Shown: positions 33,348 to 39,038 of the stretch, piece by piece | Position numbering within the stretch: position 1 is the stretch's first letter | How the letters are laid out: each line of letters begins with the position of its first letter | DNA from: Defluviitaleaceae bacterium | GTDB taxonomy: Bacteria > Bacillota > Clostridia > Lachnospirales > WRAX01 | Assembly (NCBI GenBank): GCA_009780415.1 | Contig: WRAC01000017.1 | Span: 1 to 50,776 of the forward strand | DNA length: 50,776 bases | Direction: 5' to 3' | Notes under the pieces: generated by a model | Seen by the model: only the letters and a program-made list of their open reading frames with translations | Databases searched by the model: none | What the model was told of the DNA's origin: nothing | Made by a program: the position numbers and the translations under genes

Positions 33348-34265
33348 ATGTGTTATACTTTAAGCATGGACGGATTACGAAAGAGAATGCTTCTGATATT
33401 TAACCCCAATGCCGGGCAGCAAAGGTTTCCGGCTTATCTTTATGATGTTGTGAACATTTTTACGCTGGCGGGTTTTCTTGTTACGGTACTGCCTACGCGG
33501 GCGAACGGCTGCGCGGGCGATGCCATTGCCCGTTACGCGGAAGATCATGAGTATGTGGTCTGCTCCGGCGGGGACGGTACAATCGGCGAATGCATCGACG
33601 CGCTTCTGCAACTTGAGAAACGCCCGGTTTTCGGGGTTATTCCCTCGGGTACCGCCAATGATTTTGCCGTGTCGCTTGGTATTCCGAAGGATATTATTTC
33701 GGCTGCCGGTATAATCACTGGCGGTAACGCGAAGGCGTTGGACATCGGACGGTTTGGGAGCCGTCATTTTTCATACGTAGCCGGTTTTGGTATTTTTACC
33801 GACGTAGCTTACTCAACCCCGCAAAACCTTAAAAACGTGCTGGGAAGCCTTGCTTATTTGCTTGAGGGAATAAAACGCCTGGGATCAATTAAAACCTACG
33901 GCTGCGGGTTTATGCTTGACGGAGAAGCCGTAAACGGCGGCTTTATCCTGGGCCTTGTGGCGAACACGCATTCCGTGGGCGGTTTCAGGCTGCCAGGTAC
34001 CATTGATGTGCGGATGGATGACGGCATGTTTGAGGTGATATTGTTGAAAAGGCCCAGAACGTTAAGGGACCACCAACAGATCATAGCATCCCTCCGCAAA
34101 CAGGAAAATGGTTCGGATTTATTAATTATTCGGAAGGCAAGCAAGGTGGAATTCAGCTCCCCGATGCCGGTGGCATGGACGCTGGACGGCGATTTTGGCG
34201 GTGAATGCAAAGATGTTGTCATCGAAAATGTTCCCCATGCCATAAATGTTATGGTTCCGGGATAA
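33348..34265 (+). CDS. Diacylglycerol/lipid kinase family protein (DagK/YegS-like)
   Basis: The LLIFNPNAGQ start region and the VVCSGGDGTIGE motif. The start is ambiguous among ATGs 33348, 33366 and 33387, none with a strong RBS. A TGTGTTATACT extended -10-like element overlaps 33350-33360. Confidence 0.7.
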   Translation: MCYTLSMDGLRKRMLLIFNPNAGQQRFPAYLYDVVNIFTLAGFLVTVLPTRANGCAGDAIARYAEDHEYVVCSGGDGTIGECIDALLQLEKRPVFGVIPSGTANDFAVSLGIPKDIISAAGIITGGNAKALDIGRFGSRHFSYVAGFGIFTDVAYSTPQNLKNVLGSLAYLLEGIKRLGSIKTYGCGFMLDGEAVNGGFILGLVANTHSVGGFRLPGTIDVRMDDGMFEVILLKRPRTLRDHQQIIASLRKQENGSDLLIIRKASKVEFSSPMPVAWTLDGDFGGECKDVVIENVPHAINVMVPG

Positions 34266-34273
34266 AATAACAC

Positions 34274-34302
34274 TTGATAAAAATAATCAACTATGCTATG
34301 AT
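34274..34302 (+). promoter_or_regulatory. Sigma-A promoter (TTGATA-17-TATGAT) for the leader of the MutS2-paralog/ABC operon
   Basis: TTGATA at 34274-34279, a 17-nt spacer, then TATGAT at 34297-34302. Confidence 0.55.
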
Positions 34303-34329
34303 AATAAAAAATTGAAGGGTGGTTTATTG

Positions 34330-34365
34330 ATGTCGGTTCTGTCTGTTACGGTGATGATCAACTAA
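34330..34365 (+). CDS. Candidate leader peptide MSVLSVTVMIN (uORF)
   Basis: The RBS is 7 nt upstream. The ORF lies inside the attenuator-like leader. It is very short, so low confidence. Confidence 0.35.
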   Translation: MSVLSVTVMIN

Positions 34366-34484
34366 ATAATAGTTGTAAGGAACGCATAAGCATTAGCTTA
34401 TTTTGTTGTTCCTTTAAAACACTGCCTAACAGACTGCTCGGAACATCAATATATGCCCTTTTTTTGTAGTATATTGAGAGATAT

Positions 34485-34546
34485 GCCCACGGGAGCATTC
34501 TGCACTTTTTATGGTGTGGTTGTGTTTTCGTGGGCTTTTATTTTGT
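34485..34546 (+). terminator. Leader terminator (GCCCACG-long loop-CGTGGGC plus T4AT4)
   Basis: A 7-bp GC stem closes a structured interior. It is followed by TTTTATTTTG immediately before the RBS. Confidence 0.45.
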
Positions 34547-34559
34547 AAAGGAGATTATC

Positions 34560-36482
34560 ATGAACCACTTAACAACGCTTGAATTTGACAAGATATTAGA
34601 AAAACTTGCCCATTGCGCGGTTTCTGAAACGGTGAAGGAGCGCTGCCTTACGTTAAATCCCGCAAAGAGCTTACCGAAAGCCGAACGCCGCCAGTGCGAA
34701 ACAACACAGGCCAAGCAAATAATTGAACAGACGGGAACGCCGCCCCTTGCGGCTATGACCGATTTACAAAAGATTATCGGGCTATTGGGTGCGGATGCTA
34801 TGCTTATCCCGGAACAGCTTGCCCATGTTATGGCTTTCATTACATCTTGCCGGCGCATGGTTACGTATATGCAAAAAGCCCGGTTTACAGATGTTGACGT
34901 GGCATTTTACGGCGGGTCGTTTATAGATTTGTCGCATGTTGAGGATGAAATAAACCGTTGTATACGCGGTATACAGGTGGACGACCGGGCTTCCCAGCGT
35001 CTATATGACTTGCGCAGGGGTATTGAGATCAAAGGCGAACAGATAAAGGCAAAACTGGATCAAATGCTGAGGAAAAACAGGGATTGCTTTTCGGAAGGCT
35101 TCGTTGCCGTCCGAAACGGGCGCTATACCCTTCCGGTTAAAAGGGAATTCAAAAGCAGGATAGAGGGTGTTATGGTTGAATTATCAAACACCGGCGGCAC
35201 TTGTTTTATTGAACCCGCATCTGTAAGGAAACTGCAGGACGAGCTGGGGGAGCTGCATATCGAGGAGGACAATGAGGTGCGCCGCATCCTTTACACGCTC
35301 ACTGCTTTGGTGCATGATTTTCTGCCATCCATCCGCGTAAATATCGATGCCATGGAAACATTGGATTTCCTTTTCGCTAAGGCTAAATTGAGCATGGACA
35401 TGAAAGCCTCCCCCGTCCGGTTGATTGAAGGCAGGGAAATGCGGATTCTGTCGGCGCGGCATCCGCTGTTGCGTGAAGAAATTGCTGTGCCGTTAGACTT
35501 TGCATTGGGTGGGGATTGGACGGGCGTTGCCATAACCGGGCCAAATACCGGGGGTAAGACGGTGGCTCTTAAAACGGTGGGGTTGCTATCGCTAATGGCT
35601 CAAAGCGGGTTGCATATTCCTGCTAACGATAAAAGCATAATATGTATGTTTGACGCGGTTTTGTGCGATGTAGGCGATGGGCAGAGCATTACGGAGAATC
35701 TTTCCACTTTTTCGTCGCATATGACAAATATAATAGGTATTTTACGGGCATCCACTGAAAATTCCCTTGTCCTCCTTGATGAGCTGGGTTCGGGAACCGA
35801 TCCGGCGGAGGGCATGGGCATTGCGATGGCGATTCTGGAAGCTTTGCTGGTAAAACGCTGTTTGTTTACCGTAACTACCCATTATCCCGAAATAAAGGAT
35901 TTCTCGGCGTATACTGACGGTTTGATAAACGCGAGGATGGCTTTTGATAAGGAAAGTCTGATGCCGTTATATAGGCTTGAAATAGGCGAGGCCGGGGAAA
36001 GCTGCGCTTTGTATATTGCCGAAAGGCTGGGTATGCCTGTTGATTTATTAAATCGCGCGCGGGAGATAACGTATGCGGGCGCGCACAGTGCGCCCCTGCG
36101 GATGCCGCCGGCAATGGAAAGATTAATCCCGGTCGTACCTCTGGAATTGGCGGAGGAAGCCGCCGAACCCGTTCCGGTCCCGCGCAGTCAACGGTTTAAT
36201 ATCGGCGACAGCGTCACCGTGTATCCGCAGAAAGAAATAGGGATCGTATACGCCCGCGCCAATGAAAAAGGGGAAGTCGGCGTTCAAGTAAAGGGCAGAA
36301 AGCGGTTGGTGAACCATAAACGGATAAAGCTGAAAATAGCGGCAAGCGAATTATATCCCGACGATTACGACATGTCCATTGTTTTTGACAGCGTGGAGAA
36401 CCGGAAGGCTTGGCGTTTAATGGATAAGAAGCATGTTGAGGGGAATGTCGCCGTCATTAAAAAAGGGGTGAATGAGAGATGA
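34560..36482 (+). CDS. MutS2-family paralog lacking the Smr nuclease domain (MutS domain-V ATPase plus KOW-like C-terminus)
   Basis: RBS AAGGAG. 640 aa. Reads ITGPNTGGKTVALKTVGLLSLMAQSGLHIPA, with DELGSGTDP. A KOW-like block (FNIGDSVTVYPQKEIGIVYARANEKGEVGVQVKG) is present, but there is no Smr domain. Its stop overlaps the next gene's start as ATGA. Confidence 0.85.
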   Translation: MNHLTTLEFDKILEKLAHCAVSETVKERCLTLNPAKSLPKAERRQCETTQAKQIIEQTGTPPLAAMTDLQKIIGLLGADAMLIPEQLAHVMAFITSCRRMVTYMQKARFTDVDVAFYGGSFIDLSHVEDEINRCIRGIQVDDRASQRLYDLRRGIEIKGEQIKAKLDQMLRKNRDCFSEGFVAVRNGRYTLPVKREFKSRIEGVMVELSNTGGTCFIEPASVRKLQDELGELHIEEDNEVRRILYTLTALVHDFLPSIRVNIDAMETLDFLFAKAKLSMDMKASPVRLIEGREMRILSARHPLLREEIAVPLDFALGGDWTGVAITGPNTGGKTVALKTVGLLSLMAQSGLHIPANDKSIICMFDAVLCDVGDGQSITENLSTFSSHMTNIIGILRASTENSLVLLDELGSGTDPAEGMGIAMAILEALLVKRCLFTVTTHYPEIKDFSAYTDGLINARMAFDKESLMPLYRLEIGEAGESCALYIAERLGMPVDLLNRAREITYAGAHSAPLRMPPAMERLIPVVPLELAEEAAEPVPVPRSQRFNIGDSVTVYPQKEIGIVYARANEKGEVGVQVKGRKRLVNHKRIKLKIAASELYPDDYDMSIVFDSVENRKAWRLMDKKHVEGNVAVIKKGVNER

Positions 36483-37459
36483 ATGTTATTACAACGCAAG
36501 GTTTATCCAAAATATATAAGCGATTTGAAAAAGAAGCCGGGTTAAAGGGTAGTGTAAAAAGCCTGTTTAACCGGAAATTCACAGAAAAACACGCGGTGTC
36601 AGCTTTCGACTTAAACATCGAAAAAGGCGAGTTTGTAGGCCTTATCGGGCCGAATGGAGCGGGGAAAACCACCCTTGTAAAAATGCTTACGGGTATTATC
36701 GCCCCTACATCAGGGGAGATATCGGTTCTGGGATATTATCCCAATAAGCTGGAAAACGCGTTCAAAAAGCAATACGCGGTGGTTATGGGGCAAAAGAGCC
36801 AGCTTTTCTTCGAGTTGACCCCAACCGACACCTTCCGCCTGTTTAAGGAATTATACGCCATACCGGATGACCTTTATAAGCGTAATGTCGGTTATTTTGT
36901 CGAATTATTCGGCGTATCCCAATTCCTTAATGTCCAGGTGCGGACTTTATCTCTGGGCGAACGCATGAAGATGGAATTAATCGTTGCCCTTCTTCACAGC
37001 CCCGGCGTTCTGTTCCTGGATGAACCCACCATCGGGCTTGACGCCGCGTCCCAAAGGCAAATGCGCCTGTTCCTAAAGGAGGTCAACCGTGAGAAAGGCA
37101 CCACTATTTTGTTGACATCGCATTATATGGAGGATGTGCGCAGTCTTTGCCCGCGGAGCATCGTTATCGGCGGCGGGGCAAAAATCTATGACGGTTCAAC
37201 GGATAACTTGTTTGACTCTTATCAGACCCGTAAAAAAATAACCCTCGCCTTTGATACGGAAACCGATTTTACGGTTCCGTACAACTGTGAGCTTATTGAT
37301 AAAAGCCCGTACAAGGTAGTATTTATGGCGCCTAAAGACGGCGATGCCCGTTTAATTTCAACACTGGCGCAGGAATATACGCCCATTGACATCTCCGCCG
37401 AAGAAGAGGATATCGGCGCGGTGGTGGAACGGATTTACGCGGGGGGGATGAACCGTTGA
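36479..37459 (+). CDS. ABC transporter ATP-binding protein (ABC-2 type) with C-terminal extension
   Basis: Walker A GLIGPNGAGKTT. Signature LSLGERMKM. Walker B LFLDEPTIGLD. An ~80-aa C-terminal domain follows. Confidence 0.85.
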   Translation: MNVITTQGLSKIYKRFEKEAGLKGSVKSLFNRKFTEKHAVSAFDLNIEKGEFVGLIGPNGAGKTTLVKMLTGIIAPTSGEISVLGYYPNKLENAFKKQYAVVMGQKSQLFFELTPTDTFRLFKELYAIPDDLYKRNVGYFVELFGVSQFLNVQVRTLSLGERMKMELIVALLHSPGVLFLDEPTIGLDAASQRQMRLFLKEVNREKGTTILLTSHYMEDVRSLCPRSIVIGGGAKIYDGSTDNLFDSYQTRKKITLAFDTETDFTVPYNCELIDKSPYKVVFMAPKDGDARLISTLAQEYTPIDISAEEEDIGAVVERIYAGGMNR

Positions 37460-38250
37460 AAAAATATATGGCGTTTTCCAAAATATTTTTCAAAGCGCAG
37501 ATTATATACCGTTTTGATGTAGCCGTAACGGCTATTGAGGCCCTTGGAAGGATACTTTTCGCATGGCTGATATGGGGGGCTGTTTTTGCCGGGCGTGACG
37601 TGGTTGGCGGTTTTACATTCCGTTCCATGCTGCTTTATTATGTTGTAAGCTCCTGTATCGCCACATTGGATATATGCTTCGGGGTAAGCAGCGAAATCAA
37701 CCACGAAGTCAGGAACGGTTTATATACAAAGTTCATGGTCATCCCAATCAACCAGCAGTTATACTGGCTGTCGAAAAATCTTGGCGTCGTCTCATATCTG
37801 GCGATGTTTGTGCTGCCCGTGGCGCTTATAAGCGGCTGGCTTTTCGGGGCTGGCGGTTATGCCGGCCAGCCCGCCGCCGCAATCCTTGGGCTGCTCATGA
37901 TTCCTTTGGGGCTGGCCTTTATGGTTACATTCCACTTTTTTATTGGGATACATGCGTTTAAGTTCCATGATGTGGGGTTTTTCATATATTTCCAGTCAGC
38001 TTTGGTACAGTTCACCCAAGGCGGAGTAATTCCAATTAACCTCCTGCCCGATACCGTATTAAACATCCTGCGCCTGCTTCCCTTTCCTCATGTTATTTAC
38101 ACGCCGTCGATGCTGCTTATCGGCGGAATGGATTTTAGGGAGGGTTTATTCTCAGCCGGGGTGCTGATTGTTTGGTTAGCAGGTATGTCGGCGGCGGCTC
38201 AATTCGCATACAAACGGCTGCGGATAAAATATGACGGGGTGGGTATATGA
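37456..38250 (+). CDS. ABC-2 family transporter permease
   Basis: 6 predicted TM helices, about 264 aa. TTG/ATG start overlaps the upstream stop. Confidence 0.7.
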   Translation: MKKYMAFSKIFFKAQIIYRFDVAVTAIEALGRILFAWLIWGAVFAGRDVVGGFTFRSMLLYYVVSSCIATLDICFGVSSEINHEVRNGLYTKFMVIPINQQLYWLSKNLGVVSYLAMFVLPVALISGWLFGAGGYAGQPAAAILGLLMIPLGLAFMVTFHFFIGIHAFKFHDVGFFIYFQSALVQFTQGGVIPINLLPDTVLNILRLLPFPHVIYTPSMLLIGGMDFREGLFSAGVLIVWLAGMSAAAQFAYKRLRIKYDGVGI

Positions 38251-39038
38251 AAAGGAATATTAGATTCATCTTACTGTTGATAAAATTAAAGCTCTCCCAT
38301 ATGATGGTGTTCCGGCTGAGTTTTTTTATCGGTTTTTTTGCGGACGGAATGTTGTTTGCCGTGCAATTACTGACCTTTCAGATTATATTCGGCCAAGTAG
38401 ATTCTATAGGGAACTGGGGTCAGGGCGAAATGTTAATATTTATCGGTACTTTCTCCATGATTAATGGTTTAAATATGTTCATTTATTTTTTCGGGGTTTC
38501 AAATATCCCCCGGCTTATCAGAACCGGGGGGCTCGACCTTTATATAACCAAACCGGTAAACCCATTGCTTCGCCTTACATTTGAAAACGTAAATCTGGGC
38601 AGCGCGCCGCTGCTTATTTTCAGCGGCGTGATCGTTGCATACGGGGTATCGGTGTTAGGGGCGGAGGTAACTGCGCCTCTGTTGACCGGGTATATCACGC
38701 TTACGCTGCTTATGACGCTGCTCTATTATGACATGGAAGTCATACTCCGTACCCTACCGTTCTTCTTCATCGGAACAAGCGCCATAGACCGCTTGGAAGG
38801 CGAGTTAATCATGTTGAATTTCAAAGTCCCGGGAGTGATTTATCAGGGCGTATTTAAAATCATTTTCTATTTCATCTTACCCTACGGCATAATGGCTACC
38901 GTGCCCACACAGGCACTTTCCCGTACATTAACCGCAGGCGGTTTGCTTCAAGCTTTAGCCGTTGTTGTTTTCTTCACGGTATTTGCCTTGTGGTTTTGGA
39001 AATTCGGGCTTAAACATTACAAAAGCGCCAGCAGTTAA
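38247..39038 (+). CDS. ABC-2 family transporter permease (second subunit)
   Basis: 6 predicted TM helices, 263 aa. ATGA overlap with the upstream gene. Confidence 0.7.
   Translation: MKRNIRFILLLIKLKLSHMMVFRLSFFIGFFADGMLFAVQLLTFQIIFGQVDSIGNWGQGEMLIFIGTFSMINGLNMFIYFFGVSNIPRLIRTGGLDLYITKPVNPLLRLTFENVNLGSAPLLIFSGVIVAYGVSVLGAEVTAPLLTGYITLTLLMTLLYYDMEVILRTLPFFFIGTSAIDRLEGELIMLNFKVPGVIYQGVFKIIFYFILPYGIMATVPTQALSRTLTAGGLLQALAVVVFFTVFALWFWKFGLKHYKSASS

Follow-up and report, generated by a model that had tools for sequence, protein, structure and literature searches.

What kind of regulatory element separates a diacylglycerol-kinase-like gene from a 640-aa gene in a Defluviitaleaceae bacterium, and what does it respond to? 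The window, that is the whole stretch of DNA analysed here, covers 50,776 nt of contig WRAC01000017.1 (assembly GCA_009780415.1), and positions are those of its forward strand, read 5′ to 3′. A first-pass annotation had described in this interval a leader with a short upstream open reading frame (uORF), mutually exclusive hairpins and a terminator close to the ribosome-binding site of the structural gene. The leader spans 34309–34559, and its multiple elements from uORF to terminator were all verified in the sequence. As detailed below, we consider that it is a real, conserved and previously unannotated leader, predicted to act as a ribosome-dependent transcription attenuator. The computational support for this covers conservation, covariation and alternative folds.

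Promoter and genes of the locus

The leader and the genes on both sides are arranged as follows.

33348–34265, diacylglycerol-kinase-like (dagK-like) gene, adjoining the leader on its 5′ side
34266–34559, intergenic region between the dagK-like gene and the 640-aa gene
34274–34302 (+ strand), promoter-like site: −35 TTGATA, 17-nt spacer, TG at 34294–34295, −10 TATGAT
34548–34553 (+ strand), Shine–Dalgarno sequence (SD) AAGGAG of the structural gene, unpaired in the predicted folds
34560–36482 (+ strand), Smr-less MutS2 paralogue of 640 aa, with its ATG at 34560
36479–39038 (+ strand), ABC-2 transporter composed of a DrrA-like ATPase and two ABC2_membrane_6 permeases
36479–37459 (+ strand), DrrA-like ABC ATPase of this transporter
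37456–38250 and 38247–39038 (+ strand), the two ABC2_membrane_6 permeases

Since the promoter-like site ends at 34302, the transcript is expected to start a few bases 5′ of the uORF SD, at about 34309. Promoter-like sites were also located in three relatives (L013, L018 and L077), where they end 8–20 nt 5′ of the SD region. A scan of the window detected no promoter-like site between the leader and the structural gene.

The protein encoded by the structural gene matches TIGR01069 with 568 bits (cut-off 400) over model positions 4–511 of 790, and its residues 4–505 align to B. subtilis MutS2 as present in the ribosome-collision structures 7qv3 and 8qpp (E = 2e-106). The match and the alignment indicate that the N-terminal, clamp and ATPase (MutS_V) regions of MutS2 are present. 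With Pfam, MutS_V alone was retrieved, and no Smr or KOW match was observed in the window protein nor in eight diverse homologues. Nearly all of 70 homologues of the paralogue measure 630–660 aa. Its C-terminal 136 aa gave no Pfam match and no PDB match by sequence or profile, and a single-sequence structure model of this region (pLDDT 40.6) was too poor to judge a KOW-like fold. The stop codon of the paralogue gene overlaps the start codon of the ABC ATPase gene (ATGA, 36479–36482) and the permease genes overlap likewise, which implies that the genes from the paralogue through the permeases form one operon. The overlapping stop and start codons also suggest translational coupling.

The leader accompanies the genes on its 3′ side

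A genome scan with the MutS2 paralogue protein retrieved 71 loci, all from Clostridia except one from Halobacillus; the closest belong to Defluviitaleaceae MAGs from termite gut. When the window leader was used in BLASTN, matches were obtained about 300–450 nt upstream of the gene in distant taxa, as in Pseudobacteroides (81% identity over 67 nt, E = 8e-10). When the 71 loci were searched with a profile of the uORF region, 41 gave a single match, in each case 270–460 nt upstream of the gene and in its orientation; the window contained one match. The carriers span Desulfosporosinus, Pseudobacteroides, Aminipila, and Lachnospiraceae and Oscillospiraceae MAGs. The dagK-like upstream neighbour was found in none of the other loci and the genes upstream differ between loci; the leader therefore travels with the downstream genes. 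Most loci are devoid of the ABC transporter.

An independent sample was provided by a metagenome scan using the uORF motif (25 nt) alone, which yielded 39 contigs. The MutS2 paralogue was present downstream on 17 of them, the ABC transporter seen in the window lay directly downstream instead on six (L074, L081, L087, L083, L099 and L107), and six others end before any gene is visible. Seven were chance matches (the TARA ocean contigs L073, L075, L078, L106 and L108, together with L093 and L101), with no start at the uORF position and no good downstream partner for helix P2 (see below), and acted as internal negative controls. The uORF with its own SD is kept in 41 genome loci and about 30 metagenome loci, and the leader stands before the MutS2 paralogue, a DrrA-like ABC-2 transporter, or both.

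Two metagenome contigs carry remnants of the paralogue. In L107, a short fragment of its N-terminus separates the leader from the ABC ATPase, and in L097 a 78-aa stub of the N-terminus is encoded by an ORF located 426–663 nt past the uORF motif. These remnants suggest that the paralogue has been lost or is decaying there, the leader being retained.

A uORF of fixed length and variable sequence

The uORF and its ribosome-binding site lie at the 5′ end of the leader.

34314–34322 (+ strand), SD region of the uORF, GAAGGGTGG / GAAGGGUGG, also the outer 5′ strand of helix P1
34330–34365 (+ strand), uORF of 11 codons plus stop, MSVLSVTVMIN, with ATG at 34330 and TAA at 34363–34365

The reading frame MSVLSVTVMIN, previously noticed for its good ribosome-binding site, is present, and its SD, start, stop and 11-codon length are conserved. 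Of 41 distinct main-type leaders, 40 have this length, and the start codon is ATG (19), TTG (19) or GTG (3). Every true member carries an SD (GGAUGG, GGAGG or GGGUGG) and a start codon, whose distance to the conserved core is constant. The stop codon is changed from TAA to TGA in L056, and a one-base deletion within the uORF of L011 is followed by a new stop one codon further. The peptide itself is variable: position 7 is occupied by K, M, T, R or E, and many changes occur at positions 2–4 and 9–10. The most constant codons are at the same time helix strands, so that conservation of the uORF is confounded with that of RNA pairing. Given the variable peptide and the location of the constant codons in helices, length and translatability appear to be selected rather than a specific arrest peptide. 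The uORF is probably translated.

A Ser-Val pair recurs among the uORF peptides. Ser, Thr or Ala in the penultimate position is known to favour chloramphenicol-induced stalling (10.1101/2021.06.17.448903). By analogy, the recurrence of Ser-Val may be taken as a lead towards such stalling.

The uORF is embedded in a conserved RNA domain

The leader is unusually stable: the minimum free energy (MFE) of 34300–34565 is −89.4 kcal/mol compared to −58.1 ± 4.4 kcal/mol for shuffled sequences (z = −7.15), and none of 200 shuffles was as stable. Each leader, when folded singly, gave the same domain composed of helices P1 to P4, in which the uORF SD, the start codon and approximately codons 4–9 pair with a distal 3′ strand (P1/P2), constituting the predicted anti-antiterminator. 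In the window, this domain includes the following elements.

34314–34336 with 34441–34461 (+ strand), P1 in the predicted fold
34325–34336 (+ strand), inner 5′ strand of P1, which holds the start codon and pairs with 34441–34451 in the MFE structure
34341–34353 (+ strand), 5′ strand of P2, UCUGUUACGGUG, pairing with 34420–34434
34359–34375 (+ strand), P3, a small hairpin with the uORF stop (CAACUA-AAUAA-UAGUUG), found in nearly all main-type leaders
34377–34414 (+ strand), P4, the peripheral hairpin AAGGAAC/GTTCCTT, of variable length and sequence among relatives
34420–34461 (+ strand), distal 3′ strand, including the 3′ strand of P2 (34420–34434) and those of P1 (34441–34451 and 34454–34461)

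The SD region was paired with the distal strand in the MFE structure of all 32 distinct leaders examined, and the SD and its partner change together: GGAUGGUU/AACCAUUU, GGAUGGUG/CACUAUCC and GGGAGG/CUUCCU, compared to GAAGGGUG/UGCCCUUU in the window. P2 pairs uORF codons 4–8 (UCUGUAA.GGUG) with CC.UUACAGA. With a plain MAFFT alignment of the whole domain (A1), RNAalifold recovered 7 pairs. This alignment is poor because the variable P4 and the 3′ strand of P1 misalign, and anchored segments (A2) were therefore used. In A2, 89% of the P2 cells are paired, versus 30–47% when the partner is slid. Four P2 pairs change on both sides, including an A-U to U-A exchange at columns 42/71 in the window-like group. 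Throughout the leader, covariation comes from few independent lineages.

The first-pass annotation had proposed a different switch, in which the 3′ arm of hairpin AAGGAAC/GTTCCTT would leave its partner for a downstream GGAAC. The hairpin (34377–34383/34408–34414) and the GGAAC (34440–34444) are indeed present, and the alternative pairing GTTCC/GGAAC is possible in the window. As a switch, it was rejected, being absent in relatives including the window-like L077, L083 and L084. Folding in silico did reveal alternative structures, the conserved ones differing from those named, and alignment of homologues showed that the uORF and the terminator are conserved in distant relatives whereas the P4 hairpin is variable. 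The annotation was right about the class of element and wrong about the helices.

One strand is shared by the uORF domain and a candidate antiterminator

Downstream of the domain, the leader contains a putative intrinsic terminator (T2) and the elements that could prevent its formation. Here, OFF refers to the state with the uORF domain and T2 folded, and ON to the state with the antiterminator.

34485–34535 (+ strand), GC-clamped terminator hairpin T2, −30.6 kcal/mol
34485–34498 with 34522–34535, and 34500–34506 with 34513–34519 (+ strand), stems of T2
34536–34544 (+ strand), U tract of T2, UUUUAUUUU
34430–34441 (+ strand), antiterminator strand A, CAGACUGCUCGG, partner of the uORF region (OFF) or of 34486–34502 (ON)
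34491–34502 (+ strand), antiterminator strand B, GGGAGCAUUCUG, within the 5′ arm of T2
34446–34477 (+ strand), helper hairpin of the ON fold only (34446–34454 with 34469–34477), which uses the P1 3′ strand and has a U7 run in its loop

The GC-clamped hairpin with a U tract that had been reported near the ribosome-binding site is thus recovered, its U tract ending three bases before AAAGGAG. Its position is conserved. The 5′ arm consensus CCCRCAGGAGYAUUCUGC is kept across families, which is unusual for a terminator, and is kept even where the arm lies partly in an internal loop. The T2 stem covaries (CCCGC/GCGGG versus CCCAC/GUGGG). From its sequence, T2 probably terminates transcription.

The segment CAGACUGCUC (34430–34439) is complementary to the conserved strand GGGAGCAUUCUG of the T2 5′ arm, and is predicted to pair with GAGCAUUCUG in this arm. 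In its consensus form CAGAyUrCUUC, it pairs within the domain with codons 5–6, codons 2–3 and the start codon, and complements the T2 5′ arm. This antiterminator pairing was observed in 96.3% of the cells of a 24-sequence alignment, versus at most 55% with the partner slid. One position is always paired, as A-U or G-C (11 sequences each) or as G-U (2 sequences); a single pair has changes on both sides. None of 500 shuffles matched the observed score, and cognate strands pair better than non-cognate ones (p = 0.014). Further lineage-specific changes, in L060, L031/L068, L034/L055 and L028, mend or lengthen the antiterminator helix.

The consequences of ribosome occupancy were simulated by folding nascent transcripts, cut after the T2 5′ arm, of 29 leaders with and without a ribosome footprint. 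Without ribosome, none of the 29 constrained folds contained the antiterminator. A footprint over the start codon produced it in 28 of 29 leaders; with the P site placed at codons 1 to 11, it formed in 22–28 of 29. A control footprint of the same size on P4 gave no antiterminator (0/29). The window fold flips solely for P-site codons 1–6, and most relatives flip for any codon. A footprint corresponding to a stall at the stop codon gave the antiterminator in 5 of 29 leaders, rising to 22 of 29 after a 3-nt shift. Because of this dependence, we do not claim that only initiation stalls are sensed, save for codons 1–6 of the window. Equivalents of the helper hairpin (UCAAU...AUUGA) are found in the window-like L077 and L084. 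The antiterminator (−13.3 kcal/mol) is far weaker than T2 and, at equilibrium, T2 forms even with a ribosome on the start codon; the switch must therefore be kinetic, as in other attenuators.

These folds also bear on a different reading, in which the uORF domain would be a ligand- or protein-binding, riboswitch-like RNA controlling T2 directly, the short frame being incidental. Such an RNA would account for the conserved multi-branch fold, for the location of most conserved nucleotides in helices and for the poor conservation of the peptide. It would not account for the constant placement of an SD and a valid start codon among all true members, nor for a stop codon that is kept through its change in L056 and a length of 11 codons kept in diverged variants (described below). 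Moreover, blocking the uORF region alone flips the predicted fold, and no conserved unpaired junction core was identified. Searches against Rfam 15 returned no credible match in the leader (E up to 10) and no gathering-score match in the leaders of six relatives. We regard a riboswitch-like RNA as quite unlikely and, for the metabolite riboswitch in particular, the earlier dismissal agrees with the absence of an Rfam match and the conserved uORF. Elsewhere in the window, a T-box leader (RF00230, 4638–4892, + strand, 113.8 bits) is the sole gathering-score Rfam match.

Most relatives carry a second terminator

In nearly all relatives, including the window-like L077, L083 and L084, an extra strong terminator (T1) lies between the domain and T2 (for example L018 2817–2851, L013 2816–2834 and L077 407–431), often with one or two more hairpins. 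A scan of L013, L018 and L077 detected no promoter-like site in the T1–T2 interval with the orientation of the gene. In folds cut after the T1 5′ arm, this arm pairs with the freed 3′ strand, at positions −5 to +14 around CAGA. In most Desulfosporosinus-type leaders, the T1 5′ arm (GUAGAGUGUAACAGG) is predicted to be captured only with a ribosome over the start codon; the prediction is weak or less clear in the Pseudobacteroides-like group. The models explain only in part how one strand might serve both T1 and T2 in relatives.

The T1 hairpin is absent from the window, where its place is taken by a U run.

34459–34465 (+ strand), U7 run directly after P1, at the place of the relatives' T1

This run may be a pause or weak termination site. 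It is flanked by two copies of the 8-mer ATATGCCC (34451–34458 and 34481–34488), the first giving GCCC to P1 and the second starting T2. The duplication had drawn attention in the first reading of the sequence; it is real and weakly unusual, with seven occurrences in the window versus 2.9 expected, a number reached by 2 of 100 shuffles. No conserved role was found for it. The two copies and the U7 run look like the trace of a local duplication or deletion that removed T1 in the window lineage.

Sequence-diverged leader variants also occur (Defluviitaleaceae type, L050 type and L041). In Defluviitaleaceae (L001–L009 and L070), a sequence-diverged leader lies about 200–390 nt upstream of the gene, with an SD and a GTG- or ATG-started uORF that has 11 codons in 9 of 10 cases (MSANMVSVIKT-like). 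The SD pairs with the strand AACCUUUUUUGAAUACUGC, which is conserved and lies ahead of T1 and T2; the segment that comes next (CAUCUGC or UAUCUGUGG) looks complementary to the T2 5′ arm. A third variant (L050–L053), about 250 nt upstream of the gene, has a 12-codon uORF (MSVLIAGVRVTE-like) and two terminators; its distal strand contains GACUGC, a match to the GCAGUC of the upper part of T2. In Halobacillus litoralis (L066, Bacilli), a 7-codon frame, MSVVVLN, stands behind AAAGGAG about 342 nt upstream of the paralogue. This frame gave no match to the leader profile.

The presence of a strong T1 right after the domain in relatives, and the frequent linkage of an ABC transporter, could be read differently: the promoter, the uORF domain and the first U run (T1 in relatives) would form a gene of their own, whose product is a small RNA or a hydrophobic micropeptide of 11 residues, the latter perhaps a substrate of the ABC transporter, and T2 would be separate. 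Several observations argue against such a gene. The window has no T1 hairpin, no promoter-like site separates the domain from the gene in the window or T1 from T2 in the three relatives inspected, and the 3′ strand of the domain covaries with the T2 5′ arm. In addition, the peptide varies at most positions and most loci lack a transporter. We therefore hold it to be very improbable.

Still less credit is given to an amino-acid-sensing attenuator of the trp/his type, which would read the charging of Ser or Val tRNA. The peptides are Ser- and Val-rich, as in MSVSSVKVIFN, but contain no run of one regulatory codon, and the genes downstream, a MutS2 paralogue and an exporter, are non-biosynthetic. 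Finally, translational attenuation of the ermC type, one of the two models initially put forward on account of the short uORF and the hairpins downstream, would have stalling free the ribosome-binding site of the structural gene, and is the least probable of all since none of the predicted states has the SD (34548–34553) or the ATG at 34560 paired, both being outside T2, and the T2 U tract is typical of an intrinsic terminator; the other model, bmrB-bmrCD, stands.

A model for ribosome-dependent attenuation

The features above lead us to favour, with good though not full confidence, a ribosome-dependent attenuator of the anti-antiterminator/antiterminator/terminator type. Transcription would start near 34309, and the SD and the 11-codon uORF would be made first. 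In the OFF state, the uORF would be without a ribosome as the distal strand (34420–34461) emerges. This strand would then pair with the SD, the start codon and the P2 codons, locking away CAGACUGCUC; T2 and its U tract would form, and transcription would end 15–25 nt before the MutS2-paralogue gene. In the ON state, a ribosome held on the uORF would keep P1 and P2 from forming. The freed CAGACUGCUC would pair with GGGAGCAUUCUG before the T2 3′ arm is made, T2 would fail, and the MutS2 paralogue and the ABC transporter would be transcribed.

Arrest of translation by a compound that targets the ribosome is the most likely signal. Canonical MutS2 uses its KOW and Smr domains to bind collided ribosomes and its ATPase to split them (PMC10897456). 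Without it, B. subtilis becomes more sensitive to chloramphenicol, tetracycline and erythromycin, the ATPase being the critical domain (PMC10897456). By analogy, the Smr-less paralogue may also act on ribosomes, and the role of canonical MutS2 together with the drug sensitivity caused by its loss makes a stalling-induced paralogue a plausible rescue or tolerance factor.

A more daring extension, which we think unlikely but worth stating, is that the uORF is a built-in collision sensor with feedback through the induced paralogue. With 11 codons, 30 nt separate the P site of a ribosome that waits at the stop (codon 11) from that of the next one, at the start (codon 1). The two ribosomes of a collided disome are spaced by roughly this distance. 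To cover the SD, the start codon and P2 together, and so free the antiterminator, would require such a pair or a ribosome stalled early. The paralogue would in turn act on stalled or collided ribosomes and split them, those on its own leader included, turning the switch off. If so, the locus would combine an exporter with an inducible, autoregulated module for ribosome rescue or antibiotic tolerance.

Beyond this extension, the favoured attenuator points to an unrecognised inducible response to translation inhibitors across many Clostridia, in which a putative ribosome-rescue ATPase would occupy the place usually held by ABCF or HflX factors. An 11-codon uORF, CAGAyUrCUUC, and GGAGyAUUCUG inside a terminator provide a family-wide signature for annotation, and the start codon and the two 10-nt strands a concrete switch that can be mutated.

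Comparison with known systems

No paper was found describing this leader or any MutS2 leader or attenuator. Among antibiotic-responsive leaders, those of Listeria hflXr (lmo0762) and lmo0919 place a terminator before a ribosome-splitting or -protecting factor. Their effector is an HflX GTPase or an ABCF protein, in contrast to the MutS2 paralogue, their leader sequences also differ, and we know of no 11-codon rule in these attenuators. Translational attenuation of ermC needs a specific arrest peptide. As in ermC, a short leader peptide would sense drug-bound ribosomes; here, however, the peptide varies and the response would be read out by an intrinsic terminator.

The bmrB leader peptide is much longer, about 54 residues, the bmrB leader sequence is unrelated to that of the window, and the bmrCD transporter is a type I heterodimeric exporter, compared to the ABC-2 system found here. 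What the two would have in common is a ribosome-mediated transcriptional attenuator before an ABC exporter; that of B. subtilis bmrB-bmrCD, a model established by experiment, responds to translation inhibitors (PMC4191407).

In the vmlR leader of B. subtilis, which has been dissected by experiment, a stalled ribosome holds open an anti-antiterminator stem bearing the uORF, which permits the antiterminator to form and leads to read-through (PMC9226507). The leader described here likewise has a short uORF inside a predicted anti-antiterminator stem and an antiterminator that would capture the terminator (PMC9226507 for vmlR). This likeness is one of architecture, known on our side from sequence and predicted folds. 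The vmlR uORF has 3 codons (MIN) and lies in a bulge, with a single-stranded SD (PMC9226507), whereas the present uORF is 11 codons long and belongs to a four-way domain, with SD, start and stop each engaged in a helix. The vmlR leader also has a hairpin sequestering the SD of the gene itself, in contrast to the free SD of the MutS2-paralogue gene, and it induces a resistance factor acting on the ribosome, the place of this ABCF protein being taken here by the MutS2 paralogue. Relative to both vmlR and bmrB-bmrCD, the leader is thus distinguished by a uORF fixed at 11 codons, by tandem terminators in its relatives and by the MutS2 paralogue that it would regulate.
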